A stretch of 43,557 nucleotides of DNA from NCBI GenBank assembly GCA_046095085.1, contig JBJTIQ010000069.1, positions 1 to 43,557 of the forward strand. The letters run 5' to 3'. This document shows positions 1 to 41,309 of this stretch, piece after piece (position 1 is the stretch's first letter; the number at the start of each line of letters is the position of its first letter). The notes under the pieces are model-generated. The model was given only the letters and a program-made list of their open reading frames with translations, was not told where the DNA came from and made no database searches. The DNA is from Actinomycetota bacterium (GTDB taxonomy: Bacteria; Actinomycetota; Actinomycetes; S36-B12). The position numbers were made by a program, and so were the translations under genes.

Positions 1-1440
1 GAGACCGTACGTCGCATCGCGCAGACCGCTGCCGAAGCGGGCGAGCGAGTAGCCGCCGAGCTCGGCGTCGCGGCCGTCGAGGAGACCGGCTTCGGTGTCG
101 CCGAGCACAAGAAGCTCAAGAACGTCGCCTGCTCGGTGGGCATCTGGAACACCTATCGCGATCACGACTACGTGTCGCCGGTCCTTCACCCCGACCGCGG
201 AATCGTCGAGGTGCCGCGCCCGGCGGGTGTGGTGATCGCGCTAACTCCATCGACCAATCCCGTGGCGACTGTCTTCTTCAAGATCATGCTCGCGCTGCTG
301 ACGCGCAACGCGATCATCATCTGCCCCCACCCCTTCGCCAAGCGGGTCTGCACCGAGGCCGCGTATGCGATGGCTGAGGCCGCTGTCGCCGCTGGCGCAC
401 CCGACGGCTGCATCCAGGTGGTCGAGGAGCCGTCGATTCCTCTCGTCAACGCCCTGATGACCGACGATCGGGTCGATGTCATCGTGGCCACCGGGGGCAC
501 CGCCATGGTGCGCGCCGCCTACCGCAGCGGCAACCCGGCGATAGGAGTCGGTCCCGGCAACGTGCCGGTGATGGTCGACGCCACCGCCGACGTCGCTGCC
601 GCGGCCCACCGCATCGTGGCGAGCAAGGCCTTCGACAACTCCATCCTGTGCACCAACGAGTCGGTGCTCATCGTCGAGGAAAAGGCCGCCGGGGCTCTCG
701 AAGCCGCACTGCGGCGCGAAGGCGCCTACGTCCTAGCCGGCGAGGAGATCGATGCCGTGAAGAGCGTGATCTTCGACGGCACCACCTTCAACACGGCATG
801 GGTCGGCAAGTCGGCCACGCAGATCGCCGAGGCTTCGGGCATCAAGGTGCCGGCCAACACGCGCATCCTCGTCGCACCCTTCCCGCTCGTCGTACCCGAG
901 GAGATGCTCTCCCACGAGAAGCTCTGCCCCGTGCTTGGCATGGTCGTCGTGCCGAGTGCCGCTCGCGGCATCGATGCGGCCCGTGCCGTGCTGCGCATCA
1001 GCGGAGCAGGGCACAGCGCCGCCATCCACAGCGAGGACGCCGCGACGATCATGGCTTTCGCCTCGGCCGTGCCGGTGTTGCGCGTCGCCGTCAACGTTGG
1101 CAACAGCCTCGGCAGCGCCGGTATCGAGACACATCTGGCCCCGACCATGACCATCGGCACCGGGTTCTTCGGTCGCTCATCGGTGGGAGAAAACCTCGAG
1201 CCGAAGCACCTGGTCAACATGACGCGGATCGCCTATCCCTCGGACGGCAGTTCAGCGATGCCCGACTTCAGTGCTCTGCAGCCCTGGCACGAACCCGCCG
1301 GGGCGGTTCCGCCGTATCCGATCGCCTCCAACATGGAAGGGGCCCCCGCCCTCGTGCGCGCCGACGACCCGCAGGACGAACTGCGCGACGAGATCCGCCG
1401 CATGGTCGTCGAAGAGCTCCGAGAGATCCTGCGGGGCTGA
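1..1440 (+). CDS. CoA-acylating aldehyde dehydrogenase, BMC-associated (PduP/EutE class), 5' partial
   Basis: Frame 1 is open from base 1 (ETVRRIAQTAAEAG... precedes the listed start at 136), so the N-terminus lies outside the window. ALTPSTNP, ATGG, GPGNVP and the catalytic-Cys context FDNSILCTNES fit PduP/EutE-type acylating AldDH. A Pro-rich linker is followed by a C-terminal amphipathic helix, DELRDEIRRMVVEELREILRG. Confidence 0.85.
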   Translation, partial: ETVRRIAQTAAEAGERVAAELGVAAVEETGFGVAEHKKLKNVACSVGIWNTYRDHDYVSPVLHPDRGIVEVPRPAGVVIALTPSTNPVATVFFKIMLALLTRNAIIICPHPFAKRVCTEAAYAMAEAAVAAGAPDGCIQVVEEPSIPLVNALMTDDRVDVIVATGGTAMVRAAYRSGNPAIGVGPGNVPVMVDATADVAAAAHRIVASKAFDNSILCTNESVLIVEEKAAGALEAALRREGAYVLAGEEIDAVKSVIFDGTTFNTAWVGKSATQIAEASGIKVPANTRILVAPFPLVVPEEMLSHEKLCPVLGMVVVPSAARGIDAARAVLRISGAGHSAAIHSEDAATIMAFASAVPVLRVAVNVGNSLGSAGIETHLAPTMTIGTGFFGRSSVGENLEPKHLVNMTRIAYPSDGSSAMPDFSALQPWHEPAGAVPPYPIASNMEGAPALVRADDPQDELRDEIRRMVVEELREILRG

Positions 1441-1441
1441 C

Positions 1442-2047
1442 ATGGCTGAACTTCGTTCCTTCATCTTCCTTGACCGCCTGCAACCGCAGACGATGTGCTA
1501 TCTGGGCACGTGGATCCGCGGGTCGCTGCCGCGAGCGGGTGTCGCGGCACAGATCATCGAGGTGGCTCCCGGCCTCGACATCGAGCCCCTGACCGATATC
1601 GCGCTCAAGCACGCCGACATTGGCGCGGGCATCCTCTTCGTCGAGCGCCAGTTCGGCTACCTCGAAGTGCACGGCCCCACGAGTTCGGTGCGTAGTGCTG
1701 CCGACGCTGTGCTCGAGCACCTCGGAGCCAGCGCATCGGATGCCACGGCCCCGCAGATCCTCGCCTCGCGCGTGGTCCCGAAGATCGACCGTCAGCACGC
1801 GTTCCTCATCAACCGCAACAAGCTCGGCTCGATGGCACTGCCGGGGCAGTCGCTCTTCGTGCTGGAAATGCAGCCCGCGAGCTATGCGATCCTCGCCACC
1901 AACGAGGCCGAGAAGGCCGCGCGCATCAACGTCGTGGACTACCGCATGGTGGGTGCCACGGGCCGCGTCTACCTAACCGGCACCGAGTCCGAGGTGCGAG
2001 CTGCCGCCGACGCAGCCGAGGGTGCCCTGCGGAGCGTGGTCTCATGA
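1442..2047 (+). CDS. BMC-T shell protein (tandem BMC domains), copy 1
   Basis: ATG at 1442 lies 1 nt after the AldDH stop. The 201-aa product is about twice the size of a single BMC domain. It is a paralogue of 2945..3604 and shares L(D)x[24 protein letters not shown] and GRVY-xG. The N-terminal ELRSFIFLDRLQPQ resembles CsoS1D/CcmP-type trimers. Confidence 0.85.
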   Translation: MAELRSFIFLDRLQPQTMCYLGTWIRGSLPRAGVAAQIIEVAPGLDIEPLTDIALKHADIGAGILFVERQFGYLEVHGPTSSVRSAADAVLEHLGASASDATAPQILASRVVPKIDRQHAFLINRNKLGSMALPGQSLFVLEMQPASYAILATNEAEKAARINVVDYRMVGATGRVYLTGTESEVRAAADAAEGALRSVVS

Positions 2048-2373
2048 CCTCCCCCGACATGCTGCGCGAGGTCATCCGCGAGGTCGTGCGCGACGTCATC
2101 CGCGAGGTCATCGCCGAGGAGATGGCAGCCGTTGCGCTCAGCCAGGCCTCCGGCACCAACCATGCTTCACCGCGGGCCACACAGCCCGCGCCGCGGGCTT
2201 CGGTGCCGACCGGCGTACTGCTGGACCGCGGAGCACTGACCGAGCGTCACGTGCGATCCGCGGGCGACGCCAAGTCGATAACCATCGGAAGCAAAGTCGT
2301 CATCACGCCCCTCGCCCGCGAACGTGCGCGGACGATGGGCATCGAGATCATCCGGGTCTCGGTCGAAGGGTAG
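2044..2373 (+). CDS. small BMC-locus protein with an N-terminal (REVI)x4 amphipathic helix; function unknown
   Basis: The start overlaps the upstream stop (ATGA at 2044-2047). Coding bias is good. The N-terminus is MTSPDMLREVIREVVRDVIREVIAEEM, followed by a Pro/Ala/Ser linker and a roughly 50-aa C-terminal module (VLLDRGALTERHV...VVITPLARERARTMGIEIIRV). It lies between shell genes. Confidence 0.6.
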   Translation: MTSPDMLREVIREVVRDVIREVIAEEMAAVALSQASGTNHASPRATQPAPRASVPTGVLLDRGALTERHVRSAGDAKSITIGSKVVITPLARERARTMGIEIIRVSVEG

Positions 2374-2381
2374 GAGAAGAC

Positions 2382-2630
2382 ATGCTGCGCGCACGCGTCA
2401 TTCAAAGCGTCTGGTCGACGAAGAAGGTCTCGTCGATCCCCAACGGCGCCTTCCTCGAGGTCGAGGTCGAACCCGGCGGTGCCCGTCTGGTCGCCTTCGA
2501 CGTGCTCGGATCCGGCGTCGGCGAGGCCGTGCTGGTAACGACCGGCTCGGTCGCGGCCGCATGGCTGCCCGGCGACGCACCCCCCATTGACGCGCTCATC
2601 ATCGGTTCGATCGATGAGGAGCGGAACTGA
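2382..2630 (+). CDS. BMC-P vertex pentamer protein (EutN/CcmL/PduN family)
   Basis: ATG at 2382 is preceded by AAGGGTAGGAG. The 82-aa product MLRARVIQSVWSTKK...LVAFDVLGSGVGEAVLVTTGS..IDALIIGSID is typical EutN/CcmL. The longer ORF from 2022 overlaps the preceding gene and is rejected. Confidence 0.9.
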   Translation: MLRARVIQSVWSTKKVSSIPNGAFLEVEVEPGGARLVAFDVLGSGVGEAVLVTTGSVAAAWLPGDAPPIDALIIGSIDEERN

Positions 2631-2666
2631 GCGGACCACCGCTCGGCAACCACGAAAGGAAACACC

Positions 2667-2948
2667 ATGTCCAACAACGCGATCGGCATGATCGAGACCA
2701 AGGGTTACGTGGCTGCGCTTGCTGCCGCCGATGCCATGGTCAAGGCAGCCAACGTGACCATCGTCAGCCGCGAGCAGGTCGGCGACGGACTCGTCGCCGT
2801 GACCATCCAGGGCGATGTCGGCGCCGTGAAGGCTGCGACCGACGCTGGTTCCGAGGCTGCTAGCCAGGTGGGCGAGCTCATCAGCGTCCACGTGATTCCG
2901 CGGCCGCACCAGGAGCTGTCGAAGAACTTCGGGGTATCGGCGAAGTGA
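2667..2948 (+). CDS. BMC-H hexamer shell protein (PduA/EutM type)
   Basis: [30 protein letters not shown]...[13 protein letters not shown]...[10 protein letters not shown] is the canonical single BMC domain. An RBS (GAAAGGAAA) lies upstream. Confidence 0.95.
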
Positions 2949-3604
2949 GCCAGGGCGGACTTCCCGCCTCGGCCGCACCGGAACTCCGGGTCTACCTGCA
3001 GCTGCTCGATCTCCAGCCGCAGTTCGCGGCGTATCTCGGTACGCCGACGCGCGCTCGCGGCTACCCGCCCTATGCGGGCCAGCACGCCCTCATCGTCGAG
3101 GTCGCGCCAGGACTGGCGATCGAGCGAGTGACGGATCTCGCGCTCCGGCAGGTGCCCGAGGCCGAACTGGGCATCCTCTTCGTCGAGAGGCAGTTCGGCG
3201 TGCTCGAGGTGCATGCGGATTCACGTGAGCACGTCGAGGCAGCCGGAGCAGCGATCCTCGCCGGCCTGGGCGCGCGACCCGAGGATCAACTCAGGCCGCA
3301 GGTGCTCTTCCATGACGTCATCCACGACATCACCGACCAGCACGCGGTGATCCTCAACCGCGTGCGTCAGGCCTCGATGGTGCTGCCCGGGCACAGCCTG
3401 CTGGTCTTCGAGATGACACCGGCGCTCTTTGCTGCCGTAGCAGCCAACGAGGCGGAGAAGGCGGCGCCCGACATCACCCTGGTCGACGTCCAGATGATCG
3501 GCGCAGCCGGACGGGTCTACATGGCCGGCAATCCCGAGTCGGTCGAGCGCGCACGCGAGGCCATCGGGGCAGCCCTTGCTGCGGTGGCGGGCCGGGATCA
3601 GTAG
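2945..3604 (+). CDS. BMC-T shell protein (tandem BMC domains), copy 2
   Basis: The GTG start overlaps the BMC-H stop (GTGA). The 219-aa product is a paralogue of 1442..2047 and shares the same motif set. Confidence 0.85.
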
Positions 3605-3627
3605 CGTCTGAGCCCGGAGGGAGCACC

Positions 3628-4605
3628 GTGACCGATCCCGTGGCCTCATTCGAGGAGTTCGCCTACGCCGCACTGCCGGCGTACGGGCTCACCGATGCCA
3701 CGCGGCTCACGCTGCTGAACGTCTCCGAAAACGGCACCTTCCTGGTCGAGGACCCCGAGCAGGGTCGCTCGGTCCTGCGCATTCATCGCACCGGCTACCA
3801 CTCCCGCGAGGCCATCCTCAGCGAGTTGGCGTGGATCGATGCGCTAAGAGCCCAGCAGATTGTCGACACCCCCGCGTTCATGCCCACTCTCGACGGAGAA
3901 CTTGTCGCGACTGCTCGCACAGCCGACGGTCGTGAGCGCTATGCCGTGCGATTCGCGTGGGTCGACGGGGTCGAACCCACCGAAGACCGTCTCGCGCAGG
4001 ACTTCGAGGAGCTTGGCTCGATCACCGCACGCCTCCACCTGCATGCCAAGTCATGGCAAAGGCCAGCGACGTTTACCCGTTTCGTGTGGGACTACGACAC
4101 TGCGCTGGGACCCAACGGGCACTGGGGGCGGTGGCAGGACGGCCTTGGCGTGGGTCCATCAGAGATCGACATCCTCGGCCGATGCGCCGATCTGATGCGC
4201 CAGCGCCTCGATGCCTACGGCAAGGGCCAGGATCGCTTCGGCCTGGTGCACGCCGACATGCGCCTTGCCAACCTGCTGGTCAACGGACCCCGCGTCAACG
4301 TCATCGACTTCGACGACTCGGGCCTGACTTGGTACATGTACGACCTGGGATCGTCGCTGTCCTTCATCGAGCACGAGCCCTACGTGCCCGAACTCGTCGA
4401 CGCCTGGATTCGCGGCTACCGGCGGACGACCGATCTGGACCCCGCCGACGAGGCCGAGCTCCCGACCTTCATCATGTTTCGACGTCTGCTGCTCGTGGCT
4501 TGGATCGGCTCGCACGCCGAGACCGAGACCGCCCAGCAGATGGGCCCGGAGTACGCCGTCACCAGCTGTCGTCTCGCCGACGACTACCTCACCAGGATGA
4601 GCTAG
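3628..4605 (+). CDS. APH-fold small-molecule kinase, probable (S)-1-amino-2-propanol kinase of RMM loci
   Basis: GTG start after GGAGGGA. Catalytic loop [13 protein letters not shown] and metal-binding IDFDDSG match the aminoglycoside/choline-kinase fold. The position next to shell genes matches the RMM locus layout. Confidence 0.75.
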
Positions 4606-4613
4606 GAGGATCC

Positions 4614-5396
4614 ATGTTCACGTCGATTGCCGGCCGCTCGGCCATCGTGACCGGTGCCACGAAGGGCATCGGCAAGGGCATCGCACGCGTGCTGGTGTCT
4701 GCCGGCGCCAATGTGCTCATCACCGGACGCAACGAAGACGACGCCAAGGCCACGGTCGCCGAGCTGTCGGACCTCGGTGGAGGCACCGTCGCATACTCTC
4801 TCGGAGACGTCGCTGACGCGTCAGCCTGCGCCCGCATGGTCGAAGCCGCACTTAGCGCACACGGTGGCCTCGACATCCTTTGCGCCAATGCGGGGATATT
4901 CCCCGATGCCAAGCTCACGTCGATGTCGGAGGCCGACATGGACCGAGTCCTGGACACCAACATCAAGGGCACACTGCTCAGCGTGCAGGCGTGCATTCCC
5001 GAACTCGCCAAGAGTGGCCGGGGCCGCGTGATCCTGACGTCTTCGATTACCGGACCCATCACCGGATTCCCCGGCTGGTCCCACTACGGCGCGAGCAAGG
5101 CTGCCCAACTCGGATTCATGCGGACCGCGGCCATCGAGCTCGCGCCGATGGGCATCACGGTCAACGCCGTGCTGCCGGGCAATGTGATCACGGAGGGGCT
5201 GGAGGACCTCGGCGCGGAATACCTGAAGGCCATGGAGATGTCCATCCCACAGCGGCGCCTCGGCAGCGTCGCCGATATCGGCAATGCCGCGCTGTTCTTT
5301 GCCACCGACGAGGCCGCATACATCACCGGTCAGGCACTCGTCATCGATGGCGGCCAGATCCTTCCGGAGTCTTTGGCTGCGCTCGAGGCCATGTAG
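4614..5396 (+). CDS. short-chain dehydrogenase/reductase, probable aminopropanol/aminoacetone dehydrogenase
   Basis: ATG at 4614 after [17 protein letters not shown] cofactor motif and YGASKAA (YxxxK). The upstream part of ORF 3957..5396 overlaps the kinase and is rejected. Confidence 0.85.
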
Positions 5397-6193
5397 TGGC
5401 CGAAGCTGCCGCGTCGGGCATGGGCGCCACCGCCGAGGGCGTGCGCCAGCGCCTCATGGCCATGGTCGAGCGCGGGGCTCTCAAGCCCGGCGAGCGCCTG
5501 GGCGCTGAGCGCGACCTCGCCGAGCAACTCGGTGTCAGTCGTTCGACGCTTCGACAGGCGCTGGGGTCGCTCGAGGCTTCCGGCGTTGTCCGCCGCGTGC
5601 CTGGCCGCAGCGGTGGCACCTTCATCGCGCCAGGCAAGGTAGACCGCGACCTGTCCCGCATCGTCGGCGTGCCAACACTGCTGCGCGATCAGGGCTTCAC
5701 GGCAGGGTCGCGCGTGGTGAGTGTCGCCGTGATGCCCGCTGGCCCCGAGGCTGCCGATGCCCTCGGTCTAGATGCGAATGACTTCGTCGTCGACCTCGTG
5801 CGGATTCGACTGGCCGACGGATCCCCCATCTCGCTGGAACACGCCCGCTTCCCCGCCGATCTCGTGCCCGGCCTGCCCGAGCGCGACCTGAGCGGGTCAA
5901 TCTATGAACTCATCGACGACGCCTACGGGCTTCGCCCCGACACGGCGACCGAGACAATGGAGGTCGTCGGAGCGGCACCCCTCGAGGCATCCATTCTCGG
6001 CGTGGAGGTCGGCTCACCATTGCTCTCCATCACTCGCACAACGCAGGACGCCAGTGGTCGTCTCTTCGAATTCTCGCGCGACCTCTTCAGATCCGATCGC
6101 ACACGCATCAGCGTGCGAGTGCAAGGAGCGCCGTCCTCGGAGAGTGCCCGACTTCGCGGTCGTCGGGTCGAGCTCGTGCCCCCGCCCGACTAA
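5396..6193 (+). CDS. GntR/HutC-family transcriptional regulator (wHTH plus UTRA domain)
   Basis: GTG at 5396 shares one base with the SDR stop codon; ATG at 5420 is an alternative start. wHTH region LGAERDLAEQLGVSRSTLRQAL, followed by a UTRA-like C-terminal part. Confidence 0.8.
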   Translation: MAEAAASGMGATAEGVRQRLMAMVERGALKPGERLGAERDLAEQLGVSRSTLRQALGSLEASGVVRRVPGRSGGTFIAPGKVDRDLSRIVGVPTLLRDQGFTAGSRVVSVAVMPAGPEAADALGLDANDFVVDLVRIRLADGSPISLEHARFPADLVPGLPERDLSGSIYELIDDAYGLRPDTATETMEVVGAAPLEASILGVEVGSPLLSITRTTQDASGRLFEFSRDLFRSDRTRISVRVQGAPSSESARLRGRRVELVPPPD

Positions 6194-6663
6194 TCTGCGC
6201 GGCGGCGCTCGAAGAATTCGCGCACCACGCTCCCGCACTCTTCTGCCAGTACGCCGCCAACCACCTCCGGGCGGTGACTCAGACGGCGGTCGCGCAGGAG
6301 ATCCCACGACGAGCCCGCCGCGCCGTAGTCCTCGTTCCAGGCTCCGAACACCACGCGGTCCACGCGTGCGAGGTGGGCCGCGCCCGCGCACATCGGGCAC
6401 GGCTCGAGGGTGACGACAAGGGTGCAACCTGCGAGATCCCGGTCACCGCGCGCTGCCGCAGCTTCGCGCAGCACGACGACTTCGGCGTGCGCTGTGGGAT
6501 CAGACAGAGCCTCACGACGATTGCCCGAAGCCGCAAGCACGCGTCCTGCGTCATCGATGAGAAGGGCGCCTACGGGTACGTCCGCGTCTCTGGCGAGTAG
6601 TGATTGCCGGGCCAGGGAAAGCGCCTCGCGCATCGCCGCCTCATCGGCCGGCCGGAACTCCAC
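6190..6663 (-). CDS. tadA: tRNA-specific adenosine deaminase
   Basis: CDA zinc motifs HAEVVVL and PCPMCAGA. The 157-aa length is typical of TadA. Confidence 0.9.
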
Positions 6664-6669
6664 GCCCGG

Positions 6670-7164
6670 TCAGTCCTTGTCGAGGGACTCGAGCACGGTC
6701 GACAGCAGCTCACCGAAGCCGATGCGGGTGGCGATGCTGGTCACCTGCTCATCGGGGTAGAGATCAGGATCGCCGAGGATGAGTTCCATCTCGTCGACGG
6801 TCACGCCGAGGTCGGCGAACAGCGTCGTATCACCCGCCGGTTCGAGTTCGTCTATCTCCTCCTCGTCATCGGGCAGGTCGACCTCGATGAGATCGGCAGC
6901 CTCTTCGGCAATCGGCCACTCGTAGGCCGCATTGAGGTCGGAGAGCACCAGTCGCGTGGCACCATCGGGAGTAACGCGGACGGCGATGAAGAACTCCTCA
7001 TCGACGGCAAGGAATCCGAGGGCACCTCCCTCGGCCGTGAGTTGTCGCAGGGCCGCGGTGAAAGAATTGAGCGACGTCGTGGCCCGAGGAGGCAGAGCGG
7101 ATACCGACCAGCGGCCATCCTCCTGCCACGCGGCGACAGCGAAGTCGACCTCATCGTCTGCCAC
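6670..7164 (-). CDS. tRNA adenosine deaminase-associated protein (actinobacterial, acidic)
   Basis: GTG at 7164 is preceded by GGAGGAGG. The gene ends 6 nt upstream of tadA. The product (164 aa) has an acidic C-terminal half ([14 protein letters not shown]). The longer ORF extending to 7647 overlaps upp antisense and is rejected. Confidence 0.65.
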
Positions 7165-7290
7165 GTCGCACCTCCTCCACACTCCCTCGACGGCATCGTG
7201 GCACGACAACCCGTCTCGTGTGTCGAGTTCGACCCAGGTTGTCGAACGAGGCCGGTGCGGACGGTCCGCCTCGCCCGATACGCTGCGCCC

Positions 7291-7929
7291 GTGCGAACAG
7301 TCGTCGTCCAGCATCCCCTGGTGGCCCACAAGCTGACCACCCTGCGTGATGAGACCACAGACTCGGCGACCTTCCGCCTGCTCGTGGAGGAACTCGTCAT
7401 CCTCCTGGCCTACGAGGCCACCCACCAACTGCGCACGACCCCGGTCACGATCATGACGCCGGTCGCCGAGACAACCGGCGTTCACCTGGCGCGTCCTCGC
7501 CCCCTCGTGGTGCCGATCCTGCGCGCCGGACTCGGGATGCTCGAGGGGATGATGCGACTCATGCCGACCGCCGAGGTCGGCTTCCTCGGCATGGTGCGTG
7601 ATGAGACCTCGCTCATCGCATCGACGTACGCCGACCGAATCCCCCACGACCTCAGCGGGCGTCAGGTGTTCGTGCTGGACCCCATGCTCGCGACCGGCGG
7701 CACCCTCGTCGCCGCCATCGATCTACTGCTGGACCGTGGCGCGAGCGACGTCACCGCGATCACGCTGCTGACGGCACCCGAAGGCCTGCGCCGCGTCGAG
7801 GAGACCTACGCGGGGCGCCCGGTCGATGTCACCGTGGTCACCGCCGGCCTCGACCTTCAGCTCAACGAGAAGGGCTACATCGTGCCAGGCCTGGGCGATG
7901 CCGGCGACCGCCTCTACGGCGTCGTCTAA
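7291..7929 (+). CDS. upp: uracil phosphoribosyltransferase
   Basis: GTG at 7291. [24 protein letters not shown] and the PRPP motif [11 protein letters not shown]; C-terminal [15 protein letters not shown]. Confidence 0.9.
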
Positions 7930-7930
7930 C

Positions 7931-8050
7931 CCCTACCCCGCCCCAGCGTTTCTCCCACTTTGTGGGACAAGCGGTCGATATTGGGCCTCTGACCTCCCCA
8001 AACGCACCGGCTCTCCCACTTTATGGGACAAACGGCGGAAGGGGTGGGGG
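7931..8050. repeat. composite palindromic intergenic repeat, copy A
   Basis: A C-rich left end and a G-rich right end flank two 17-bp palindromes: CTCCCAC-TTT-GTGGGAC (7952-7968) and CTCCCAC-TTT-ATGGGAC (8013-8029), 61 bp centre to centre. A GGTCGATAT box follows the first. It aligns in the same orientation with 22731..22850. Confidence 0.65.
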
Positions 8051-8060
8051 TCGTCGAGCG

Positions 8061-9436
<1,376 letters not shown>

Positions 9437-9437
<1 letters not shown>

Positions 9438-9745
9438 CACAGCACCTCCTCGCCCTTGGCGGCCTTCTTGGACTTGAACATCCCGAGCATGCGGTCGGTT
9501 ACGACGAAGCCGCCGACCAGGTTGATCGCTCCCAGCAGGATGGCGATCACGCCGATGATCGTCTGCACAAGCGACGTGGAGGCACCCGTCACGGTGATGC
9601 CACCGATGAGAACGATGCCGTGGATCGCATTGGCGCCCGACATCAGCGGGGTGTGGAGGATGGTCGAGACCTTGGATACGACCTCGAATCCGACGAAGAT
9701 GCTGAGCACGAAAATGGTGAGGAGCGCAACGCCATCCATGCTCAC
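9437..9745 (-). CDS. pntAB: NAD(P) transhydrogenase subunit alpha part 2 (membrane)
   Basis: A 102-aa product with three TM segments, including HTPLMSGANAIHGIVLIGG. It overlaps both neighbouring pnt genes. Confidence 0.85.
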
Positions 9746-10881
9746 CCACCTCCCTGCAGGGCGGAGATGGCGGCGTCATTGCGGACGTTGCCGTCTAGCA
9801 CCACTGAGCAGCCGGCGATGATCTCGTCATCGGGATCCACGACCACCGCACCATCCTTAGAGACGAGAGTGAGCAGGGAGTAGACGTTCATGCCGTAGAG
9901 CTGCGAGGCATGGATGGGCATCTCGCTGGGCACGTCGCGCGCCCCCCAGACCACCACTTCGCCAAACATCACTTCCTCGCCCGGCAGAGAGCCCTCGACA
10001 TTGCCACCGGATTCACTCGCGAGGTCGACCACGACCGACCCGGCGCGCATGCCCTCCACCATCGCACGCGTCACGAGCAGCGGCGCCTGCCGTCCGGGCA
10101 CCGCTGCAGTGGTGATCACGGCATCGGCCTCGGCAATGTGAGGCGCGAGCAGGTCGCGCTGTCGAGCGGCGCGGTCATCGGACATCTCGCGGGCGTATCC
10201 GCCAGATCCCTCGAGGGCATCGAGGTCGAGGCTGATGAACGTCGCACCCATCGAGCGGACCTCGTCGGCGCTGGCCGCGCGTACGTCGTAGGCGGAGACC
10301 CGCGCGCCGAGCCGCTTGGCCGTGGCGATGGCCTGCAGCCCCGCCACGCCCGCGCCCAGGACCAGCACGCGTGCGGGCTGGATCGTGCCGGCGGCCGTCA
10401 TGAAGAGCGGGAAGAACTTCGGGAGGCGGTCGGCAGCCACGAGGGCTGCGCGATATCCGGTGACCAGTGACTGAGACGTCAGCGCATCCATCGACTGCGC
10501 CCGCGAGATACGTGGCACGAGGTCGAAGGACAGTCCGGTGGCACCCGCATCATGGAGACCGCGAATCGTGTCGAGGTCAATGGCCGGCGATAGGAACGAC
10601 ACGGCGACTGCCCCCGGCCGCAGGCGCTTGGCGCGGACGTAGTCGAGGGGGCGAACGCTCGCTACGACATCAGCGGCCGCCAAGGCGTCGTCCATGCCCG
10701 ACGTCGGCACCACCAGCGCTCCAGCAGCCGCGTAGTCGGCGTCTTTGGCGTAGGCCAGATCGCCGGCGCCGGACTCGATGACGACCTCATAGCCGAGCTG
10801 GCGGAACTTGCCCACGACGGAGGGGAGGACCGCCACGCGTCGCTCGCCCGGACGTGTCTCTCCGGGGACGAGAAGCCTCAT
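9742..10881 (-). CDS. pntAA: NAD(P) transhydrogenase subunit alpha part 1 (alanine-dehydrogenase-like)
   Basis: ETRPGERRVAVLPSVV, Rossmann motif VLVLGAGVAGLQAIATAKRLGA, and operon position upstream of pntAB and pntB. Confidence 0.9.
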   Translation of the reverse strand: MRLLVPGETRPGERRVAVLPSVVGKFRQLGYEVVIESGAGDLAYAKDADYAAAGALVVPTSGMDDALAAADVVASVRPLDYVRAKRLRPGAVAVSFLSPAIDLDTIRGLHDAGATGLSFDLVPRISRAQSMDALTSQSLVTGYRAALVAADRLPKFFPLFMTAAGTIQPARVLVLGAGVAGLQAIATAKRLGARVSAYDVRAASADEVRSMGATFISLDLDALEGSGGYAREMSDDRAARQRDLLAPHIAEADAVITTAAVPGRQAPLLVTRAMVEGMRAGSVVVDLASESGGNVEGSLPGEEVMFGEVVVWGARDVPSEMPIHASQLYGMNVYSLLTLVSKDGAVVVDPDDEIIAGCSVVLDGNVRNDAAISALQGGG

Positions 10882-10921
10882 CTGAACCTCCGGGGCAGGA
10901 GCCTACGGCTACCGTGGTGAC

Positions 10922-11923
10922 GTGCGCGGACCCCTCACCCTGATCCGCGGAATCCGCCATCCCGAGGCCTTTCACGGCACCGGGCTCGACGGTGGATTCT
11001 TCGAGGGGTGGTACGTCAAAGTAGCGGATTCCCAGCAGATCGCTCGCTGGGCGTTCATCCCCGGGGTCTTCCGTGGGCACGACGGCACCACCACTACCGA
11101 CGAGGCCTTCCTGCAGGTGCTCGACGGCGCCACCGGCGAGTCCGCCTACTACCGCTACGACGCACAGGACTTCACCGCGGCCACGGATCGCTTCGACGTC
11201 TGGGTGGGCCCGCACCACTTCTCCAGCGACGGACTCAGTGTGCGACTCCCCCATCTTCAAGGAGACATCGAGTTCACGACGCCCATGGATCCCTGGCCCG
11301 TGACGTGGCGTCGTCCGGGCATCATGGGCTGGTACGCGTGGGTGCCCATGATGGAGTGCTACCACGGCGTCGTGTCCTTCGGCCACGATCTGCGCGGCGT
11401 GCTGACGGTCAACGGCCAACGCCAGGACTTCGACGGCGGGCGCGGCTACATCGAGAAGGACTGGGGGCGAGCATTCCCCGCCGGCTACGTCTGGATGCAT
11501 TCGCAGCATTTCGTCGGCGAACCCACCGCGTGCCTCGTCGCGTCGGTTGCCATCATCCCGTGGCTGCGCTCGTCGTTTCGCGGCTTCATCGTGGGCCTGA
11601 GACTCGGAGCCGATCTCCACACCTGGGCCACCTACAACGGCTCGCGCGAGCGCTGGCTGGAAATCGACGAGACCCACGTCCGCTGGGCCATCGACGGCCC
11701 TTCCGGATCGCTCGAGCTCTCCGCGGAGCGCAAGCGCGGTGGCCTTCTCCGCGCACCCATCCGCACGCGGATGCACGAGCGTGTCGAGGAAACCCTGGAT
11801 GCGGTCATAGCCGTGCGGTATATCGCGCCGGACGGACGCGTGGTCCTCGACACGACTGCGACCACGGCCGGCCTCGAGGTTCATGGCGACCTCGAACGAC
11901 TGCTGGCCGTGGGCACGCGCTAG
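10922..11923 (+). CDS. tocopherol-cyclase-like family protein (function unknown in bacteria)
   Basis: GTG start. HPEAFHG...FFEGWYVKV, GYIEKDWGRAFP and WMHSQHF resemble the tocopherol cyclase fold family. The assignment is by recalled motif similarity only. Confidence 0.45.
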   Translation: MRGPLTLIRGIRHPEAFHGTGLDGGFFEGWYVKVADSQQIARWAFIPGVFRGHDGTTTTDEAFLQVLDGATGESAYYRYDAQDFTAATDRFDVWVGPHHFSSDGLSVRLPHLQGDIEFTTPMDPWPVTWRRPGIMGWYAWVPMMECYHGVVSFGHDLRGVLTVNGQRQDFDGGRGYIEKDWGRAFPAGYVWMHSQHFVGEPTACLVASVAIIPWLRSSFRGFIVGLRLGADLHTWATYNGSRERWLEIDETHVRWAIDGPSGSLELSAERKRGGLLRAPIRTRMHERVEETLDAVIAVRYIAPDGRVVLDTTATTAGLEVHGDLERLLAVGTR

Positions 11924-11968
11924 GCAGGATGTCCGGCGAGCCCGCTCGCCACACGGCAGGATGTCCGC

Positions 11969-12973
11969 ATGGCAAAGACACCTCTCAGCCCTCGACAGTG
12001 GCATCCTCCCAAGGACGTCGGCCTCCGTGGTCCCTTCGCGCCCAATGCCGCGCTGGCCGACGTCGACGTCATTCCCATCCCCGGCACGGGGGCCGAGGAT
12101 GTCGCTGTCGACAGCCAGGGGCGCATCTACACCGGCACCCGCGAGGGCTACATCCTGCGCATCTCCCCCGATGGGCGCCACGTCGAACGCATCGTGCAAA
12201 CGGGCGGGCGTCCCCTTGGGATCGAGATCCACCCCGACGGCTACCTCATCGTGTGCGACGCGCATCGCGGCCTGCTTCGCATCCATCCCGACACCGCGGA
12301 GGTGGAGGTCCTCATCAGCGAGGTCCACGGAGTACCGCTGCGCATAACCAACAACTGCGCGATCGCAGCCGATGGGACCATCTACTTCTCCGACTCATCC
12401 CAAGACTTCGGCCTCGATGAGTTCAAGGGCGACATTATCGCCCACACGGGCAGTGGCCGACTGCTGCGCAGGCAGCCCGATGGCACGATCGAGGTGCTGC
12501 TCGACGGCCTCAACTTCGCCAACGGTGTCGCCCTCGCTGACGACGAGTCCTTCGTCCTTGTTGCCGAGACCAGCGGCTACAGCGTGGTGCGTCTGGACCT
12601 GACCGGCCCCTCCGCGGGCCGTCGTTCAGTGATCATCGAGAACCTTCCGGGGCTTCCCGACAACATGTCGACAGGGTCCGATGGGGTCTTTTGGATCGCG
12701 ATGCCATCCGTCCGCAACAAGCTCCTCGACCTACTCCTGCCCAGGCCAGGATTCCTGCGCAAGGCCATCTGGGCGATGCCCGACAGGTTGCAGCCGGATG
12801 CGTCCCGCATCACCTGGGTCATCGGCATCAACGGTGAAGGCACCGTCGTTCGCAACCTGCAAGGACCGGGGACCGCTTATCACTACGTCACCGGGGTCCG
12901 CGAGTACGACGGCAAGCTCTATCTCGGCAGCCTGGTCGAGCCCGGCGTGGCCGTCGTCGAGTTGAAGCGCTAG
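11969..12973 (+). CDS. strictosidine-synthase-like / SMP-30-gluconolactonase-type beta-propeller protein
   Basis: The pattern AEDVAVDSQGRIYTG, RPLGIEIHPDG.LIVCDA, TNNCAIAADGTIYFSDSS, FANGVAL and DNMSTGSDGVFWIA is typical of the Str_synth/SGL six-bladed propeller. Confidence 0.6.
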   Translation: MAKTPLSPRQWHPPKDVGLRGPFAPNAALADVDVIPIPGTGAEDVAVDSQGRIYTGTREGYILRISPDGRHVERIVQTGGRPLGIEIHPDGYLIVCDAHRGLLRIHPDTAEVEVLISEVHGVPLRITNNCAIAADGTIYFSDSSQDFGLDEFKGDIIAHTGSGRLLRRQPDGTIEVLLDGLNFANGVALADDESFVLVAETSGYSVVRLDLTGPSAGRRSVIIENLPGLPDNMSTGSDGVFWIAMPSVRNKLLDLLLPRPGFLRKAIWAMPDRLQPDASRITWVIGINGEGTVVRNLQGPGTAYHYVTGVREYDGKLYLGSLVEPGVAVVELKR

Positions 12974-32563: not shown

Positions 32564-33601
32564 TCAGGCGCCCATCTCGCCACTGATAGCCGCCACAAAC
32601 CCATCGACGTCTTCAGGTGTCGTATCCCATGAGCACATCCACCGAACTTCACCGGTGCGCTCATCCCACTCGTAGAACCGATAGTGCTGCTGCAGCCGGG
32701 CCGTGACGTCGCGTGGCAGGTAGGCGAAGACGGCATTGGCATCAACTCGTCGAGCGATTGTGACGCCGGGGATCTCCTTCACGCCTTCAAGGAGCCTCTG
32801 TGCCATCGCATTGGCGTGCGAAGCGTTGCGGCGCCACAGATCGTCGGTGAGAAGAGCGCACAACTGGGCGCTGACGAAGCGCATCTTGCTGGCCAACTGC
32901 ATGGACGACTTGCGTAGGAACGGCACCGCATGCGCAAGACCTGGATCGAGCACGACGACGGCTTCGGCTCCCAGGGCGCCGTTCTTGGTGCCACCGAACG
33001 ACACGATGTCGATGCCCACGTCGGTCGTGATGGCGCGGAGGTCCACGTTGAGACCAGCAGCGGCATTGGCGATGCGCGCGCCATCGAGGTGGACCTTCAT
33101 GCCCAGGCCGTGCACATGGTCGACGAGGGTGCCGAGCTGGTCGACGGAGTACGCCGTGCCGAGCTCGGACGACTGCGTCACGGTGACGACGGCCTGCTGC
33201 GCCCGATGAACGTCGCCGAAGCGCACGGCATGGAGATCGATGGCCTCGGGAGTCAGGAGCCCATCGGCCGTGGGCGTGGTCCAGAGCTTCAGGCCGGCGA
33301 CCTTCTCGGGTGCGCCTCCCTCATCCACGTTGACGTGGGCGGTGTCGGAGCAGACGACCGCCTCCCACGGGCGGCAGATGGCCGACAGGGCCACGACGTT
33401 GGCACCGGTGCCATTGAAGACGGGGAAGACCTCGGCCTGCGACCCGAAGTGATCGCGCACGAGGTCAGCAAGGCGCGCCGTCTCGTCGTCCTCGCCGTAG
33501 GCCACCGCGTGACCGGCATTGGCGCGCACAACGGCATCGAGCACCTCCGGGTGCGCGCCGGCGTAGTTGTCGCTCGCGAAGCCTCGCCAGGGTGCGCTCA
33601 T
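32564..33601 (-). CDS. low-specificity threonine aldolase (PLP-dependent, beta-eliminating lyase family)
   Basis: ATG at 33601. FASDNYAG..PEV, NGTGANV and the PLP-lysine motif SFGGTKNG. The ORF extension to 34033 overlaps the SDR gene and is rejected. Confidence 0.85.
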   Translation of the reverse strand: MSAPWRGFASDNYAGAHPEVLDAVVRANAGHAVAYGEDDETARLADLVRDHFGSQAEVFPVFNGTGANVVALSAICRPWEAVVCSDTAHVNVDEGGAPEKVAGLKLWTTPTADGLLTPEAIDLHAVRFGDVHRAQQAVVTVTQSSELGTAYSVDQLGTLVDHVHGLGMKVHLDGARIANAAAGLNVDLRAITTDVGIDIVSFGGTKNGALGAEAVVVLDPGLAHAVPFLRKSSMQLASKMRFVSAQLCALLTDDLWRRNASHANAMAQRLLEGVKEIPGVTIARRVDANAVFAYLPRDVTARLQQHYRFYEWDERTGEVRWMCSWDTTPEDVDGFVAAISGEMGA

Positions 33602-33602
33602 C

Positions 33603-34277
33603 TCAGGCCTCCGTGAGATCCATGCGCGTGCCGTTGGGCACGTCACCGTCGACGATCCCACGGATCGCTGCCGCGAGGTCAGAGGTATCCGTGTATCCCT
33701 TGAAGGCCTTGTCAGGGTCGCTCGCCCGCATGCTCTCGTCGACCAGTGCCATGACCGCCACGATCGCCGCCCGCGCCTGAGAATCCTTGAAGGAGTTGGC
33801 GAGCCCGCCCACCCAGGTCTCGGCGGCCGCCTTGGCCGTGGCGTAGGCGACGTTGCCCGCGGTGGGCCTGGTGGCGGACGTGCTCGAGACCATGACGTAG
33901 CAGCCGCCGGCATCGATGAGAGCGTCGCGGAAGGCGACGGTGGTCGTGCGGACAGTGCCGAAGACGCCCGGCGCGATCGAATCCCAGGCATCGAGCGCGG
34001 ACCGGTCGACAGTCGTGGATCCCTGCCATCCACCGACGAGGTGCACGACGGCGTCGATCCGCCCGTGTCGAGCGATCACGTCGTCGCGGAAACGAGCCAG
34101 GTCGTCGACGTCCAGCAGATCCACGACGGCAGCCTCTCCACCGACCGCATCGGCAGCCGCGTGCGCGAGATCCTCGCGACGGTCGACGACGATCACCAGA
34201 TAGGTCGAGCCCAGTGCCTTCGCCACGGCACGACCGCCCATGCCCGCGCCCAGCACGATGGCGACGGGCCGGCTCAT
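33603..34277 (-). CDS. SDR-family oxidoreductase
   Basis: IVLGAGMGGRAVAKAL nucleotide fold, catalytic YATAKAA (YxxxK), 224 aa. The start overlaps the stop of the upstream gene (ATGA). Confidence 0.75.
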   Translation of the reverse strand: MSRPVAIVLGAGMGGRAVAKALGSTYLVIVVDRREDLAHAAADAVGGEAAVVDLLDVDDLARFRDDVIARHGRIDAVVHLVGGWQGSTTVDRSALDAWDSIAPGVFGTVRTTTVAFRDALIDAGGCYVMVSSTSATRPTAGNVAYATAKAAAETWVGGLANSFKDSQARAAIVAVMALVDESMRASDPDKAFKGYTDTSDLAAAIRGIVDGDVPNGTRMDLTEA

Positions 34278-36361
34278 ACGGTCGCTCCGGTGATGCCGCG
34301 CGCGGAGTCGATGGCGGGTGCGAGGGCCTTGCGCAGCGACTCGTAAAAGACGTTGAGCGGGAACTCATCGGGAAGGACGGCATCCACCGCCTCCTTGAGT
34401 TCACCCGGCAGGGCCTGAGCGCCCTGGGCCCAGACCGACTGGGGATGCGGCGGCACGAGCGCACTCACGAACTCGTAGGCCGCGATCCAGTGGCCGAGGC
34501 GGGAGCGGTCGATGCCCTCGCGGTAAAGCGCGTCAACCTCGGCGCACAGGGCGTTCATCGCACCCTGCACGCCACTCCAGTCGATGCGCAGGGTGTTGTC
34601 GGTCCAGCGGATCACGTCGTGCTTGTGCAGCCACGCGAAGATGATCTGGCCGGCGAGTCCGTCGTAGTTGCGCACCCGCTCACCGGTGGTCGGGAAGCGG
34701 AAGAGCCGGTCGAAGAGGATCGCGATGCGCACGTAGGGGGCGAGCACGATGCCCCGCTCCCCCAAGGCCTCGGTCTCGCGGAAGGTCGACAGGTCGCAGC
34801 GCAACTCCTCGAGGCCGTACATCCAGTAGGGCATGCGCTGCTTGATCATGAAGGGGTCGAAGGGCAGGTCGCCGTGGCTGTGGGTGCGATCGTGCACGAG
34901 GTCCCACAGGACGAAGGTCTCCTGGGCGATGGCCTGGTCGTTGAGCAGGAGTTCGGCCTCCGGGGGCAGGTCCAGGCGAAGTCGGTCGGCGGCCGCCCGC
35001 GACACCCGGCGGAACCGAGCGGCCTCGCGGTCGCAGAAGATCCCTCCCCAACTGAAGGGCACCACCTCACGGGTCGCGACCGTCTCGGGGAAGAGGACCG
35101 CCGAGTGAGTGTCGTATCCCGACGTGAAGCCCATGAACTCGATCGGAACGAAGGCGGCGTTGTCGTACGACGTGGCCTCGAGCTCGGCGATCCAGTCGGG
35201 CCACACGGTGCGGATGGTGACAGCCTCGACATTGCGGTTGGGATTGCCATTTTGCGTGTACATGGGAAACACGACGACGTGCTCGATGCCATCGCGACGC
35301 ACGGACTCCGGGTGGAAGGTCATCAGCGAGTCGAGGAAGTCAGGCACGCCGAATCCACCATCGCGCCAAGCCCGGAAGTCATTGGTCACCGCCTCGATGT
35401 ATGCGGCCTGGTGCGGCACGTGGGGAGCAAGCTCGTGCAGCGCCGCCACGATCTCTTCGACGCGAGCCGATGCGACGTCAGGGTCGCCGACGATCGCGCC
35501 GTCCTTGGCCTGCAGGGGACGCAGAGCTTCGACGGCGGTGGTCAGCCGCTCCCATGCGGGACTGGAGATGACGACACTGGCCGCGGCGGTCTGCCCGCTC
35601 AACCGTGGACCCGCGGCCGCCCAGGTGACCAACGCTCGCCACAGGGCCCGATTGCCCACGTCGTCGATGGAGTCGTCACCGGCGAAGTCGGAGTCGGCCG
35701 CCACCACGACCCGCCCGGCACCCACTGACACGCCGACCAGCACCGGAGCATTGGCTGGTGATGCGGTGGGCGAGCTGGTCGCGAAGGCGTAGGCGTCGGA
35801 TTGGTCAGCCTGAACCTCTAGGACTCCCGATCGATAGAAGCACGCTGCCTGGACGTCGGCGAAGACGGTGCAGCCATGCGCATCATGTGGTTCCAGCATG
35901 ATCCATGTGGATACATCGTTGAATCGGGCAACCGGGTCTTGCGCCGTCGCATTGACGACGCCCACGCCAAAGAGCTGGGCAATGGCTCCCAGGTTGTTGC
36001 CGTACTTCGCCTGCTCTGTCTCGGCGAGGACCACCAGGCCCCCACCCCGTCGTACGAAGCCTTCGATGACGGAGATCTCATCACCGGAGTAGACCGGAGA
36101 CCCCACGCCGACCGTCGACTCCCACGCATCGTCGGAGCAATGGGGCAGCACCAGCACATCAACATCGGCAAGAATCCCCGCCGTGAGCGGACCGTCGACA
36201 TGGACCGCGACGTCGAAGCCAGCCACGGCGAGGGTGCGAGCCGCCTCGGCGTAGGACGAATCGGCGGGGTTGGCCGGGCTCATGTGTGCGGCCACCTCGG
36301 GCCGGGTCGACCACGCCTGGCGGTGGCTCTCGTCGACCATGACCTTCTTGAGCGGACGCAT
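34274..36361 (-). CDS. two-domain protein of unknown function (N-terminal GATase1/DUF4350-like domain plus C-terminal uncharacterised HxxxH-containing domain)
   Basis: A 695-aa ORF with strong GC3 coding bias. The N-terminal roughly 250 aa (DVLVLPH...EGFVRRGGGLVVLAE) resemble a non-catalytic class-I amidotransferase-like fold. The C-terminal part carries LVHDRTHSHGD...GLEELRCD. No confident family assignment. Confidence 0.6.
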   Translation of the reverse strand: MRPLKKVMVDESHRQAWSTRPEVAAHMSPANPADSSYAEAARTLAVAGFDVAVHVDGPLTAGILADVDVLVLPHCSDDAWESTVGVGSPVYSGDEISVIEGFVRRGGGLVVLAETEQAKYGNNLGAIAQLFGVGVVNATAQDPVARFNDVSTWIMLEPHDAHGCTVFADVQAACFYRSGVLEVQADQSDAYAFATSSPTASPANAPVLVGVSVGAGRVVVAADSDFAGDDSIDDVGNRALWRALVTWAAAGPRLSGQTAAASVVISSPAWERLTTAVEALRPLQAKDGAIVGDPDVASARVEEIVAALHELAPHVPHQAAYIEAVTNDFRAWRDGGFGVPDFLDSLMTFHPESVRRDGIEHVVVFPMYTQNGNPNRNVEAVTIRTVWPDWIAELEATSYDNAAFVPIEFMGFTSGYDTHSAVLFPETVATREVVPFSWGGIFCDREAARFRRVSRAAADRLRLDLPPEAELLLNDQAIAQETFVLWDLVHDRTHSHGDLPFDPFMIKQRMPYWMYGLEELRCDLSTFRETEALGERGIVLAPYVRIAILFDRLFRFPTTGERVRNYDGLAGQIIFAWLHKHDVIRWTDNTLRIDWSGVQGAMNALCAEVDALYREGIDRSRLGHWIAAYEFVSALVPPHPQSVWAQGAQALPGELKEAVDAVLPDEFPLNVFYESLRKALAPAIDSARGITGATV

Positions 36362-36449
36362 GGGGACCTCCTGGGGAAGAACAAGCGGTCCATCGTACCA
36401 AATGACGACGATTGTCCTGTAGCGGTGGGCATTCGCCGGAAATCGTCCC

Positions 36450-37730: not shown

Positions 37731-37781
37731 TGCCCGGTGCGCCTTCGGCGCCTCCGATCCTCGGCGGCCTAGCCTTGTGGC

Positions 37782-38186
37782 ATGACTACACGCACCGCGC
37801 GCTACGCGCTTCTCACCACTATCGCTGCCGGTGCCCTCGTGCTCTCGGCATGCGGCGGCTCCTCCTCATCTGATTCGAGTGCATCCGAGAGCCCCATCGG
37901 CGGCGGCTCGGCGTCCTGCGATCAAGCCACCCTCGAGGGACTCGCACAGCAGGCGACCACCGATTCGGGATCCACCTGGGTCTCGGGCAAGAGCGTCGAG
38001 TGTGTCGACGGCTGGGCACTCGTCTTCGGCATCACCAAGACGGGCGACATCGAGCAGACCACCGCGTTTGCCTTCGAGGCCGAGGGTCCCAACTGGGCAC
38101 TCAAGCAGCAGGACGCCATCTGCGGCGACGGCTCCGACGACGACATCCCCGCGCAACTGAAGGACCAGCTCTGCGCACTGCGCTAA
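37782..38186 (+). CDS. small secreted lipoprotein, unknown function
   Basis: Signal peptide with lipobox LVLSAC-GGSSS; four further Cys residues; followed by a strong hairpin. Confidence 0.55.
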   Translation: MTTRTARYALLTTIAAGALVLSACGGSSSSDSSASESPIGGGSASCDQATLEGLAQQATTDSGSTWVSGKSVECVDGWALVFGITKTGDIEQTTAFAFEAEGPNWALKQQDAICGDGSDDDIPAQLKDQLCALR

Positions 38187-38198
38187 TCCAAGGCTGAG

Positions 38199-38234
38199 AT
38201 GAGGGCGGGAGAGCGCACTCTCTCCCGCCCTCAT
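38199..38234 (+). terminator. intrinsic-terminator-like hairpin (15-bp perfect stem, 6-nt loop)
   Basis: ATGAGGGCGGGAGAG-CGCACT-CTCTCCCGCCCTCAT, 13 nt after the lipoprotein stop. There is no clear U-tract. Confidence 0.6.
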
Positions 38235-38257
38235 GCTGTCCGTGCGAAAGTAGCCGC

Positions 38258-41218: not shown

Positions 41219-41309
41219 CGCTGCCATCCTTCGGGAACTCCCGCGCGGCGGCGGGAACGGGACTACCGTAGCCGCGTGCCACCGGCGAGGTGGCGGGATG
41301 GGAGGGCAA

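Follow-up and report, generated by a model that had tools for sequence, protein, structure and literature searches.

We analysed a 43,557-nucleotide contig (JBJTIQ010000069.1, assembly GCA_046095085.1; hereafter the window) of a metagenome-assembled genome (MAG) from an uncultured freshwater Actinomycetota. Its first 6193 bases contain nine co-directional, tightly packed open reading frames (ORFs) on the + strand, whose predicted products are the shell proteins, enzymes and regulator of a bacterial microcompartment (BMC). Positions 1..6193 are very probably the 3′ nine-tenths of a metabolosome operon of the RMM1/AAUM type, a class that takes its name from the microcompartment of Rhodococcus and Mycobacterium (RMM). 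The window is the entire MAG contig and ends inside the aldehyde dehydrogenase gene; upstream content was read from relatives. The locus is a member of an already catalogued type and does not represent a new kind. What it chiefly adds is a small unnamed gene that looks like a distant PduM relative.

Gene content of the operon

The features of the operon and its convergent neighbour are given below as coordinates, strand and description.

1..1440, +: CoA-acylating aldehyde dehydrogenase (AldDH), msmeg_0276 position; 5′ end cut by the contig end
1375..1437, +: AldDH C-terminal amphipathic helix resembling an encapsulation peptide (EP), DELRDEIRRMVVEELREILRG, after a Pro-rich linker
1442..2047, +: BMC-Tdp 1 (T1), tandem permuted BMC domains; MSM0275 orthologue
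2044..2373, +: 109-residue protein, msmeg_0274 position; no Pfam family
2053-2145 (residues 4-34), +: EP-like N-terminal helix of the 109-residue protein
2215-2355 (residues 58-104), +: C-terminal β-α-β-α-β domain of the 109-residue protein
2382..2630, +: BMC-P, pentameric vertex protein; MSM0273 orthologue
2667..2948, +: BMC-H, hexameric shell protein; MSM0272 orthologue
2945..3604, +: BMC-Tdp 2 (T2); MSM0271 orthologue
3628..4605, +: APH-fold kinase, msmeg_0270 position; putative (S)-1-amino-2-propanol kinase
4614..5396, +: short-chain dehydrogenase/reductase (SDR), msmeg_0269 equivalent; putative aminoacetone / (S)-1-amino-2-propanol oxidoreductase
5396..6193, +: GntR/HutC-family regulator with winged helix-turn-helix and UTRA effector domain, encoded last in the operon
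6190..6663, -: tadA-like deaminase, convergent on the GntR gene

The genes follow one another closely. The AldDH stop codon (TGA, 1438-1440) is separated by the single base 1441 from the ATG at 1442, stop and start codons overlap as ATGA at 2044-2047 and as GTGA at 2945-2948, and the TAG of the SDR gene shares base 5396 with the GTG of the regulator gene. The remaining intergenic gaps measure 8, 36, 23 and 8 nt, and a purine run resembling a Shine-Dalgarno sequence occurs in every one. The original prediction, made from the letters of the window, had listed the nine ORFs and these four junctions, and all are present in the sequence. Strong family matches extend across nine consecutive ORFs, which would not be expected by chance.

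The shell set is minimal, with one BMC-H, one BMC-P and two different BMC-Tdp proteins. BMC-H matches PF00936 (7e-28) and carries the basal motifs KAAN and PRPH, and BMC-P matches PF03319 (1.5e-18); these are the one single-domain H protein (2667..2948) and the one P protein (2382..2630) of the RMM1/AAUM1 type. Both tandem-domain proteins match the NCBIfam CcmP model (T1, 4e-62; T2, 8e-55), while Pfam recognises one BMC domain in T1 and none in T2. For structure-linked comparisons we searched all PDB sequences. The best match of T1 is 5L39 ‘RMM microcompartment shell protein MSM0275’ (9e-94, with MSM0271 at 1.5e-42) and that of T2 is 5SUH ‘MSM0271 protein’ (3e-90, with MSM0275 at 9e-47), thus the two paralogues are reciprocal best matches of MSM0275 and MSM0271, in orthologous positions. 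The best natural match of BMC-H is 5L38 ‘MSM0272’ (4e-42), an engineered tandem fusion, 6NER, scoring higher (1.7e-49), and BMC-P is matched by 5L37 MSM0273 (5e-30), the next hit being at 2e-5. The four shell proteins therefore pair position by position with those of Mycobacterium smegmatis. No further shell genes were found among the large window ORFs scanned, and Pfam scans showed nothing BMC-related beyond 6193.

The AldDH frame is open from base 1. Its product belongs to the Pfam Aldedh family (6e-21), has acetylating aldehyde dehydrogenase models as its best NCBIfam matches (5e-126 and 9e-110), and contains the catalytic-Cys motif FDNSILCTNE. A locus from a second assembly (L001; related loci carry the prefix L) is 99.45% identical in nucleotides over window positions 1..12047 and extends 1026 bases further 5′. 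Its AldDH gene encodes 496 residues as called, or 516 if counted from a GTG overlapping the upstream stop codon, so the window copy is short by about 17-37 codons; the gene is also full-length in L003. At the C-terminus, a Pro-rich linker leads into the helix DELRDEIRRMVVEELREILRG. This helix is kept in L001 and in L003-L008, over a range of 65% to 97% AldDH identity, and the linker before it is variable. It fits the definition of an EP and the class ‘type I AldDh, C-terminal EP’ (Sutter et al., 2021). The window thus contains the pfam00171 AldDH with encapsulation peptide typical of RMM1/AAUM1, the peptide being a predicted, EP-like helix.

The kinase matches the Pfam family PF01636 APH (1e-25). 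Its best PDB match is 6EF6 (2e-93, 49.8% identity over 311 columns), which we take to be the characterised M. smegmatis aminopropanol kinase, followed by an amicoumacin kinase at 1e-15, and the motifs HADMRLANL and IDFDD are conserved in the 6EF6 alignment. Kinship with aminoglycoside-resistance enzymes would have spoken against the assignment; none of the resistance APH models in NCBIfam was matched at E ≤ 0.01. The kinase also weakly matches, in their kinase part, two models of fused kinase-aminotransferase proteins, PRK06149 (8e-8) and PRK06148 (1e-5), presumably rhizobial aminopropanol kinase-phospho-lyase fusions, which supports a functional pair of kinase and pyridoxal 5′-phosphate (PLP) enzyme. 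Kinase and aminotransferase are fused in those proteins, whereas they are separate genes within a shell operon here.

The SDR (adh_short, 3e-52) carries the motifs TGxxxGIG and YGASK, and its best PDB matches are 6CI8/6CI9 at ~1e-101 (6CI8, 9e-102; 63.3% identity over 256 columns), which we take to be the M. smegmatis aminopropanol dehydrogenase. Both of the M. smegmatis enzymes by which RMM1/AAUM1 is recognised, kinase and SDR, therefore have orthologues here, with their enzyme activities predicted. The regulator combines GntR (7e-17) and UTRA (7e-39) domains in Pfam and has 265 residues when counted from the equivalent GTG in L001. Its gene and the tadA-like gene (6190..6663, -) overlap by 4 nt at their 3′ ends, which leaves no room for an intrinsic terminator after the GntR gene.

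The enzyme, shell and regulator assignments of the original prediction are thus each backed by Pfam and NCBIfam models. The mirrored gene order that it had proposed agrees with the assignments of msmeg_0269-0277 in Supplementary Data 6 of Sutter et al. (2021). The window genes are colinear with msmeg_0276 down to msmeg_0269, and each is the orthologue of its counterpart. Every RMM1/AAUM1 feature that can be tested in the window was found there. Neither the window nor the 10-kb flanks of the relatives contain a PF06130, PF01515 or Fe-ADH gene, that is, a phosphotransacylase (PTAC) or an alcohol dehydrogenase, an absence also noted for RMM/AAUM loci in the literature.

Upstream genes in related loci

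A scan of GTDB species genomes yielded nine related loci, from lake and river MAGs and one Nocardioides MAG (L008). L003 has 95% nucleotide identity, and L017 is from Longivirga aurantiaca. A phospho-lyase-type gene and a permease had been predicted to lie upstream of base 1. L001 has a class-III aminotransferase (Aminotran_3) gene directly before AldDH, and every relative that reaches far enough (L003-L006, L008-L011 and L017) has the aminotransferase directly upstream with a divergent amino-acid permease beyond it, in line with that expectation. The aminotransferase has a PLP-lysine context, and the permease of the relatives weakly matches an ethanolamine permease model (4e-11).

The intergenic region between permease and aminotransferase contains three direct ATTYGGTMT repeats, ~11-13 nt apart, the last of which overlaps the aminotransferase ATG (L003, 8498..8600; L004, about 2090..2150; equivalent sites in L005, L006 and L009-L011). 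TGGTMT resembles the half-sites of HutC/GntR operators, and we regard the repeats as a candidate operator for the locus regulator. A search within the window found no copy, as expected with a promoter region located upstream of the contig's first base. Just 5′ of the direct repeats there is a conserved inverted repeat, GTGAC-N4-6-GTCAC (L003, about 8480..8500; equivalent in L004-L011; alignment A2, columns about 138-156).

Beyond the permease, all five relatives with enough upstream sequence (L003, L005, L006, L008 and L017) carry a diol-dehydratase cluster on the opposite strand. It comprises genes for an HbpS-like protein, a fused large and medium subunit of a B12 diol dehydratase (about 746 residues), the small subunit and a PduG-like reactivase; in L003, cluster and permease span 1233..8497 on the - strand. 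An FmdA/AmdA-type amidase gene is also present in L003, L006, L008 and L017 and was undetected in L005. The N-terminus of the large subunit is equivalent to that of PduC, the fusion leaves the medium subunit with no N-terminus of its own, and the match of the small subunit to its profile begins at position 19. Canonical encapsulation of the dehydratase is therefore unsupported, as no N-terminal extension or EP was found on the subunits of the relatives. This layout was named RMM2 by Axen et al. (2014), who raised a bifunctional compartment as one option, and the presence of PDU enzymes beside RMM loci was later judged incidental (Sutter et al., 2021).

Two relatives depart locally from the common arrangement. 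In L005 (13350..14300), the SDR aligns over 97 of 260 residues and GntR over 187 of 265, which suggests a deletion spanning the 3′ end of the SDR gene and the 5′ end of the GntR gene. In L018 (4240..5189), the kinase is called as two ORFs, of 212 residues (no Pfam match) and 104 residues (weak APH), likely a frameshift or an assembly error.

The small 109-residue protein and PduM

The 109-residue protein encoded between T1 and BMC-P has no match in Pfam or NCBIfam at threshold, and a profile of its family found no match among PDB sequences. Its family counts over 400 proteins, every one annotated as ‘hypothetical’, and comes in a short form of ~108 residues, seen in the window and its close relatives, and a long form of ~150 residues, which fills the same slot in RMM loci. 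Conserved throughout are the N-terminal helix and a ~45-residue C-terminal domain (RGALTERHV...VVITPLARERAR..GVEI). Between these two elements the long form has an added β-α-β segment (VTVRTQADLDAAIRRVL...RFVL; alignments A1 and A4), which appears to be replaced in the short form by a disordered Pro/Ala/Ser linker. The window protein begins with LREVIREVVRDVIREVIAEE, and its N-terminal helix has a helical hydrophobic moment of 0.71, the highest of the nine window proteins. The AlphaFold2 (AF2) model begins with a long helix followed by a disordered linker.

We compared the family with PduM of the Salmonella/Klebsiella Pdu microcompartment, using a reference assembled from genes in annotated plasmid records and further sequences from the protein database. 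With hhalign, the C-terminal 42 columns of the small-protein family aligned to PduM residues 121-162 (probability 82.6%, E 9.7e-6, score 37.9), and with the long forms included the values were 61.5% and 7.8e-5. Column-shuffled alignments gave mean scores of 11.2-11.5 (sd about 2.2-2.3, maximum 17-19) against the observed 37.9, which was reached by none of 150 and none of 120 shuffles. The first shuffle control of alignment A1 had produced a single outlier score of 133, suspected to be a parsing artefact, and the rerun with match columns only gave the 0/120. The secondary structure elements correspond as well: strands (E) and helices (H) of the AF2 model, E58-65, H67-73, E78-87, H89-98 and E101-104, align one-to-one with E122-123, H125-129, E134-138, E143-144, H146-154 and E157-161 of the PduM model.

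Both proteins have an N-terminal amphipathic, signal-like helix and a C-terminal β-α-β-α-β segment with the motif ...V(I/V)T(P/A)(L/M)ARxxA...I..I, and gene position agrees, as pduM lies directly 5′ of pduN (BMC-P) and the small gene likewise lies directly 5′ of the BMC-P gene. They differ in length, 163 residues for PduM against 109, and the small protein has a disordered linker instead of most of the PduM body. According to Supplementary Data 6 of Sutter et al. (2021), PF15953 (PDU_like) is the PduM family. At the gathering threshold of this profile, the window protein is not matched. Two observations count against the relationship: the similarity is confined to ~40 residues and falls below the Pfam threshold, and a Pfam scan of 22 long forms found PF15953 weakly in only one of them, below threshold. 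A long-form relative reaches PF15953 at E 0.046, with 14 bits where the cut-off is 27. IF-2 was also considered for the small protein, with below-threshold matches in 13 of the 22 long forms, and was set aside as a generic resemblance among small α/β domains. Foldseek searches of the PDB returned nothing significant for the small-protein model (top hit eIF5B domain III, E 0.2) or for the PduM model (pLDDT 91), hence we assign no fold to either.

On balance, the profile alignment and predicted structures leave us evenly divided on whether the small protein is PduM-like. In a 2025 study, PduM was found to have an N-terminal signal sequence, to localise to the core and to be needed for coupling of core and shell, and it was described as having no known homologues outside Pdu compartments. 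More tentatively, and with more doubt than confidence, we propose that the small gene is a divergent, partly truncated PduM homologue and that in this actinobacterial clade the compartment may belong to a conserved 16-gene super-locus that includes a B12 diol dehydratase, so that aerobic freshwater bacteria would use it for aminopropanol and 1,2-propanediol alike.

Proposed pathway, alternatives and known systems

The pathway steps for this compartment reportedly come from the M. smegmatis work of Mallette and Kimber in 2018. In the window organism, the permease would import aminoacetone or 1-amino-2-propanol, the SDR would interconvert aminoacetone and (S)-1-amino-2-propanol, and the kinase would produce 1-amino-2-propanol O-phosphate. 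Within the shell, the PLP enzyme would then form propionaldehyde by eliminating phosphate and ammonia, and the encapsulated AldDH would trap it as propionyl-CoA. The GntR repressor is predicted to free the operon once its UTRA domain has bound the amino alcohol or the phosphate of that alcohol. The small protein, which we infer to be PduM-like, would be anchored in the enzyme core by its helix, and its C-terminal domain might help to couple core and shell, possibly near the pentamer encoded directly downstream. As the locus has no phosphotransacylase or alcohol dehydrogenase, NAD+ and CoA would have to be exchanged or recycled by other means, for which the pores in the two Tdp trimers are a possible path.

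Several points weigh against this pathway. The aminotransferase and permease are absent from the window, and their presence is deduced from relatives. The best PDB match of the aminotransferase is a putrescine aminotransferase, ornithine and acetylornithine transaminases are also among its nearest solved relatives, and no characterised phospho-lyase is among its 48 PDB matches at E ≤ 1e-30. It has no conserved terminal amphipathic helix, which leaves its encapsulation unsupported, and conservation at its N-terminus is poor. Identity between the kinase and the characterised enzyme is only 50%, which does not by itself prove substrate specificity. The operon is known in this organism from its genes, and formation of a compartment is predicted. 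The aminopropanol interpretation of the original prediction is supported: the shell matches, the kinase and the upstream aminotransferase, on which its refuting conditions turned, all speak for it. The phospho-lyase step is read from the pathway, since no solved, characterised phospho-lyase is close to the aminotransferase. Both the phospho-lyase chemistry and the encapsulation of the aminotransferase would be inherited from the M. smegmatis model.

The divergence of the kinase also leaves room for another amino alcohol, such as ethanolamine, which would pass through phosphoethanolamine and acetaldehyde to acetyl-CoA with the SDR peripheral. The acetaldehyde dehydrogenase models that best match the AldDH and the weak ethanolamine permease match (4e-11) in the relatives point the same way, but models of acylating AldDHs do not separate C2 from C3 aldehydes. 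The SDR, 63% identical to 6CI8/6CI9 (the presumed aminopropanol dehydrogenase), is kept in every related locus, and the full colinearity with the M. smegmatis AAUM locus argues for aminopropanol as well, so we give the ethanolamine route little credence. The transaminase-like neighbours of the aminotransferase recall an older model, in which the class-III enzyme turns aminoacetone into methylglyoxal and the AldDH detoxifies it in the shell (Axen et al., 2014). In this model the APH-fold kinase, although strictly conserved, would have nothing to do. It also has to contend with the kinase matches to PRK06149 and PRK06148, and later literature has adopted the kinase/phospho-lyase route to propionyl-CoA; we hold it to be very improbable.

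A further reading keeps the aminopropanol pathway and adds a second input, with the shell and AldDH also serving 1,2-propanediol through the opposite-strand B12 diol dehydratase. Propionaldehyde would be made by both routes, and the dehydratase cluster is found in each of the five related loci whose sequence extends far enough upstream, an arrangement for which Axen et al. (2014) had raised this option. However, neither an N-terminal extension nor an EP is seen on the dehydratase subunits, transcription of their genes is divergent and the region lies outside the window, and a dual-input metabolosome seems unlikely to us. We therefore retain the aminopropanol metabolosome as the preferred reading.

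Downstream of the operon lie the convergent tadA-like deaminase gene, upp and pntAB. The pntAB genes (8061..10881, -), for a proton-translocating NAD(P) transhydrogenase, are 2 kb from the operon and also occur in L001 and L003; a link to NAD+ recycling in the compartment is pure speculation. Horizontal transfer or a mobile element was considered and rejected, as GC content is uniform across the window (0.62-0.70) and the downstream synteny (tadA-like, upp, pntAB) is common to the relatives. Further unrelated genes encode a TPP enzyme, NDH-2, an MFS transporter, a helicase, an L,D-transpeptidase, an ABC transporter, a saccharopine dehydrogenase-like protein and a glycosyltransferase. A loose amino-acid-related group at 32564..42701 comprises a β-eliminating lyase (threonine aldolase-like), DUF6421, an FAD oxidase, an amidase and an amino-acid permease, the large DUF6421 protein being encoded at 34274..36361 (-). 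Threonine catabolism is a source of aminoacetone; the group is not obviously tied to the RMM operon. No tRNA genes were found in the window.

The locus mostly confirms the catalogue, in which RMM1/AAUM is widespread in Actinomycetota, here in lake and river MAG lineages. Its sequence-diverse orthologues (enzymes at 50-63% identity) can be used to map specificity-determining residues, and a PduM-like role is a testable hypothesis for the sole unannotated gene of the RMM operon. If it is true, a core-to-shell linker of the PduM type would be ancestral to aldehyde-processing metabolosomes and not peculiar to Pdu. The diol-dehydratase neighbourhood, called incidental in 2021, is fully conserved in this clade, which reopens the question of two feeding routes; if both are used, one propionaldehyde organelle would serve aminopropanol and 1,2-propanediol. 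How NAD+ and CoA are recycled in metabolosomes without PTAC and alcohol dehydrogenase is a question that any tractable member could address.

RMM1/AAUM1 was first described in 2014 (Axen et al., 2014), and its structures and enzymes were characterised in M. smegmatis. The original prediction saw a useful comparison point in a locus outside Rhodococcus and Mycobacterium, but such loci are not new: 140 RMM1/AAUM1 loci from ‘various Actinobacteria and Proteobacteria’, with one H, one P and two different Tdp proteins, were already counted in 2021 (Sutter et al., 2021). Supplementary Data 6 of that study assigns msmeg_0269 as SDR, 0271 and 0275 as Tdp, 0272 as H, 0273 as P, 0276 as AldDH, 0277 as Aminotran_3 and 0279 as permease. 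The M. smegmatis MC2 155 locus (RMM1/AAUM, msmeg_0269-0279) has the same content in the order AldDH-Tdp-small ORF-P-H-Tdp-kinase-SDR-GntR, and its aminotransferase and permease lie beyond AldDH in the same arrangement. The window locus differs in its host, a freshwater uncultured Actinomycetota MAG, in kinase (50%) and SDR (63%) identity, and in a short small protein (~109 residues) that lacks the middle segment of the ~150-residue form. A further difference is the diol-dehydratase cluster beside the permease in the relatives of the window.

Comparison with the other types places the locus more closely. It does not correspond to the PDU type, which is marked by an EP-bearing B12 diol dehydratase with PduL, PduQ and PduP in the shell operon; no dehydratase, PduL or PduQ is in the operon here, and the dehydratase of the relatives is divergent and without N-terminal extensions. 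The name RMM2/AAUM2 was moved in 2021 to a proteobacterial type that has RMM-like genes in another order and occurs in Proteobacteria and Marinimicrobia (Sutter et al., 2021); the window locus falls outside this type, with the M. smegmatis RMM1 order and an Actinomycetota host. The ‘RMM2’ of Axen et al. (2014), described from Mycobacterium spp. with an opposite-strand diol dehydratase, has a layout identical to that of L003, L005, L006, L008 and L017, the dehydratase region lying outside the window. Among these, the assembly under the name of the described species Longivirga aurantiaca (L017, GCA_042660085.1, 2.36-Mb contig) has the same 16-gene arrangement, in which one strand carries the dehydratase cluster with the permease and the other the genes from aminotransferase to GntR. 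It differs in carrying the long form of the small protein (146 residues) and in its downstream neighbours.

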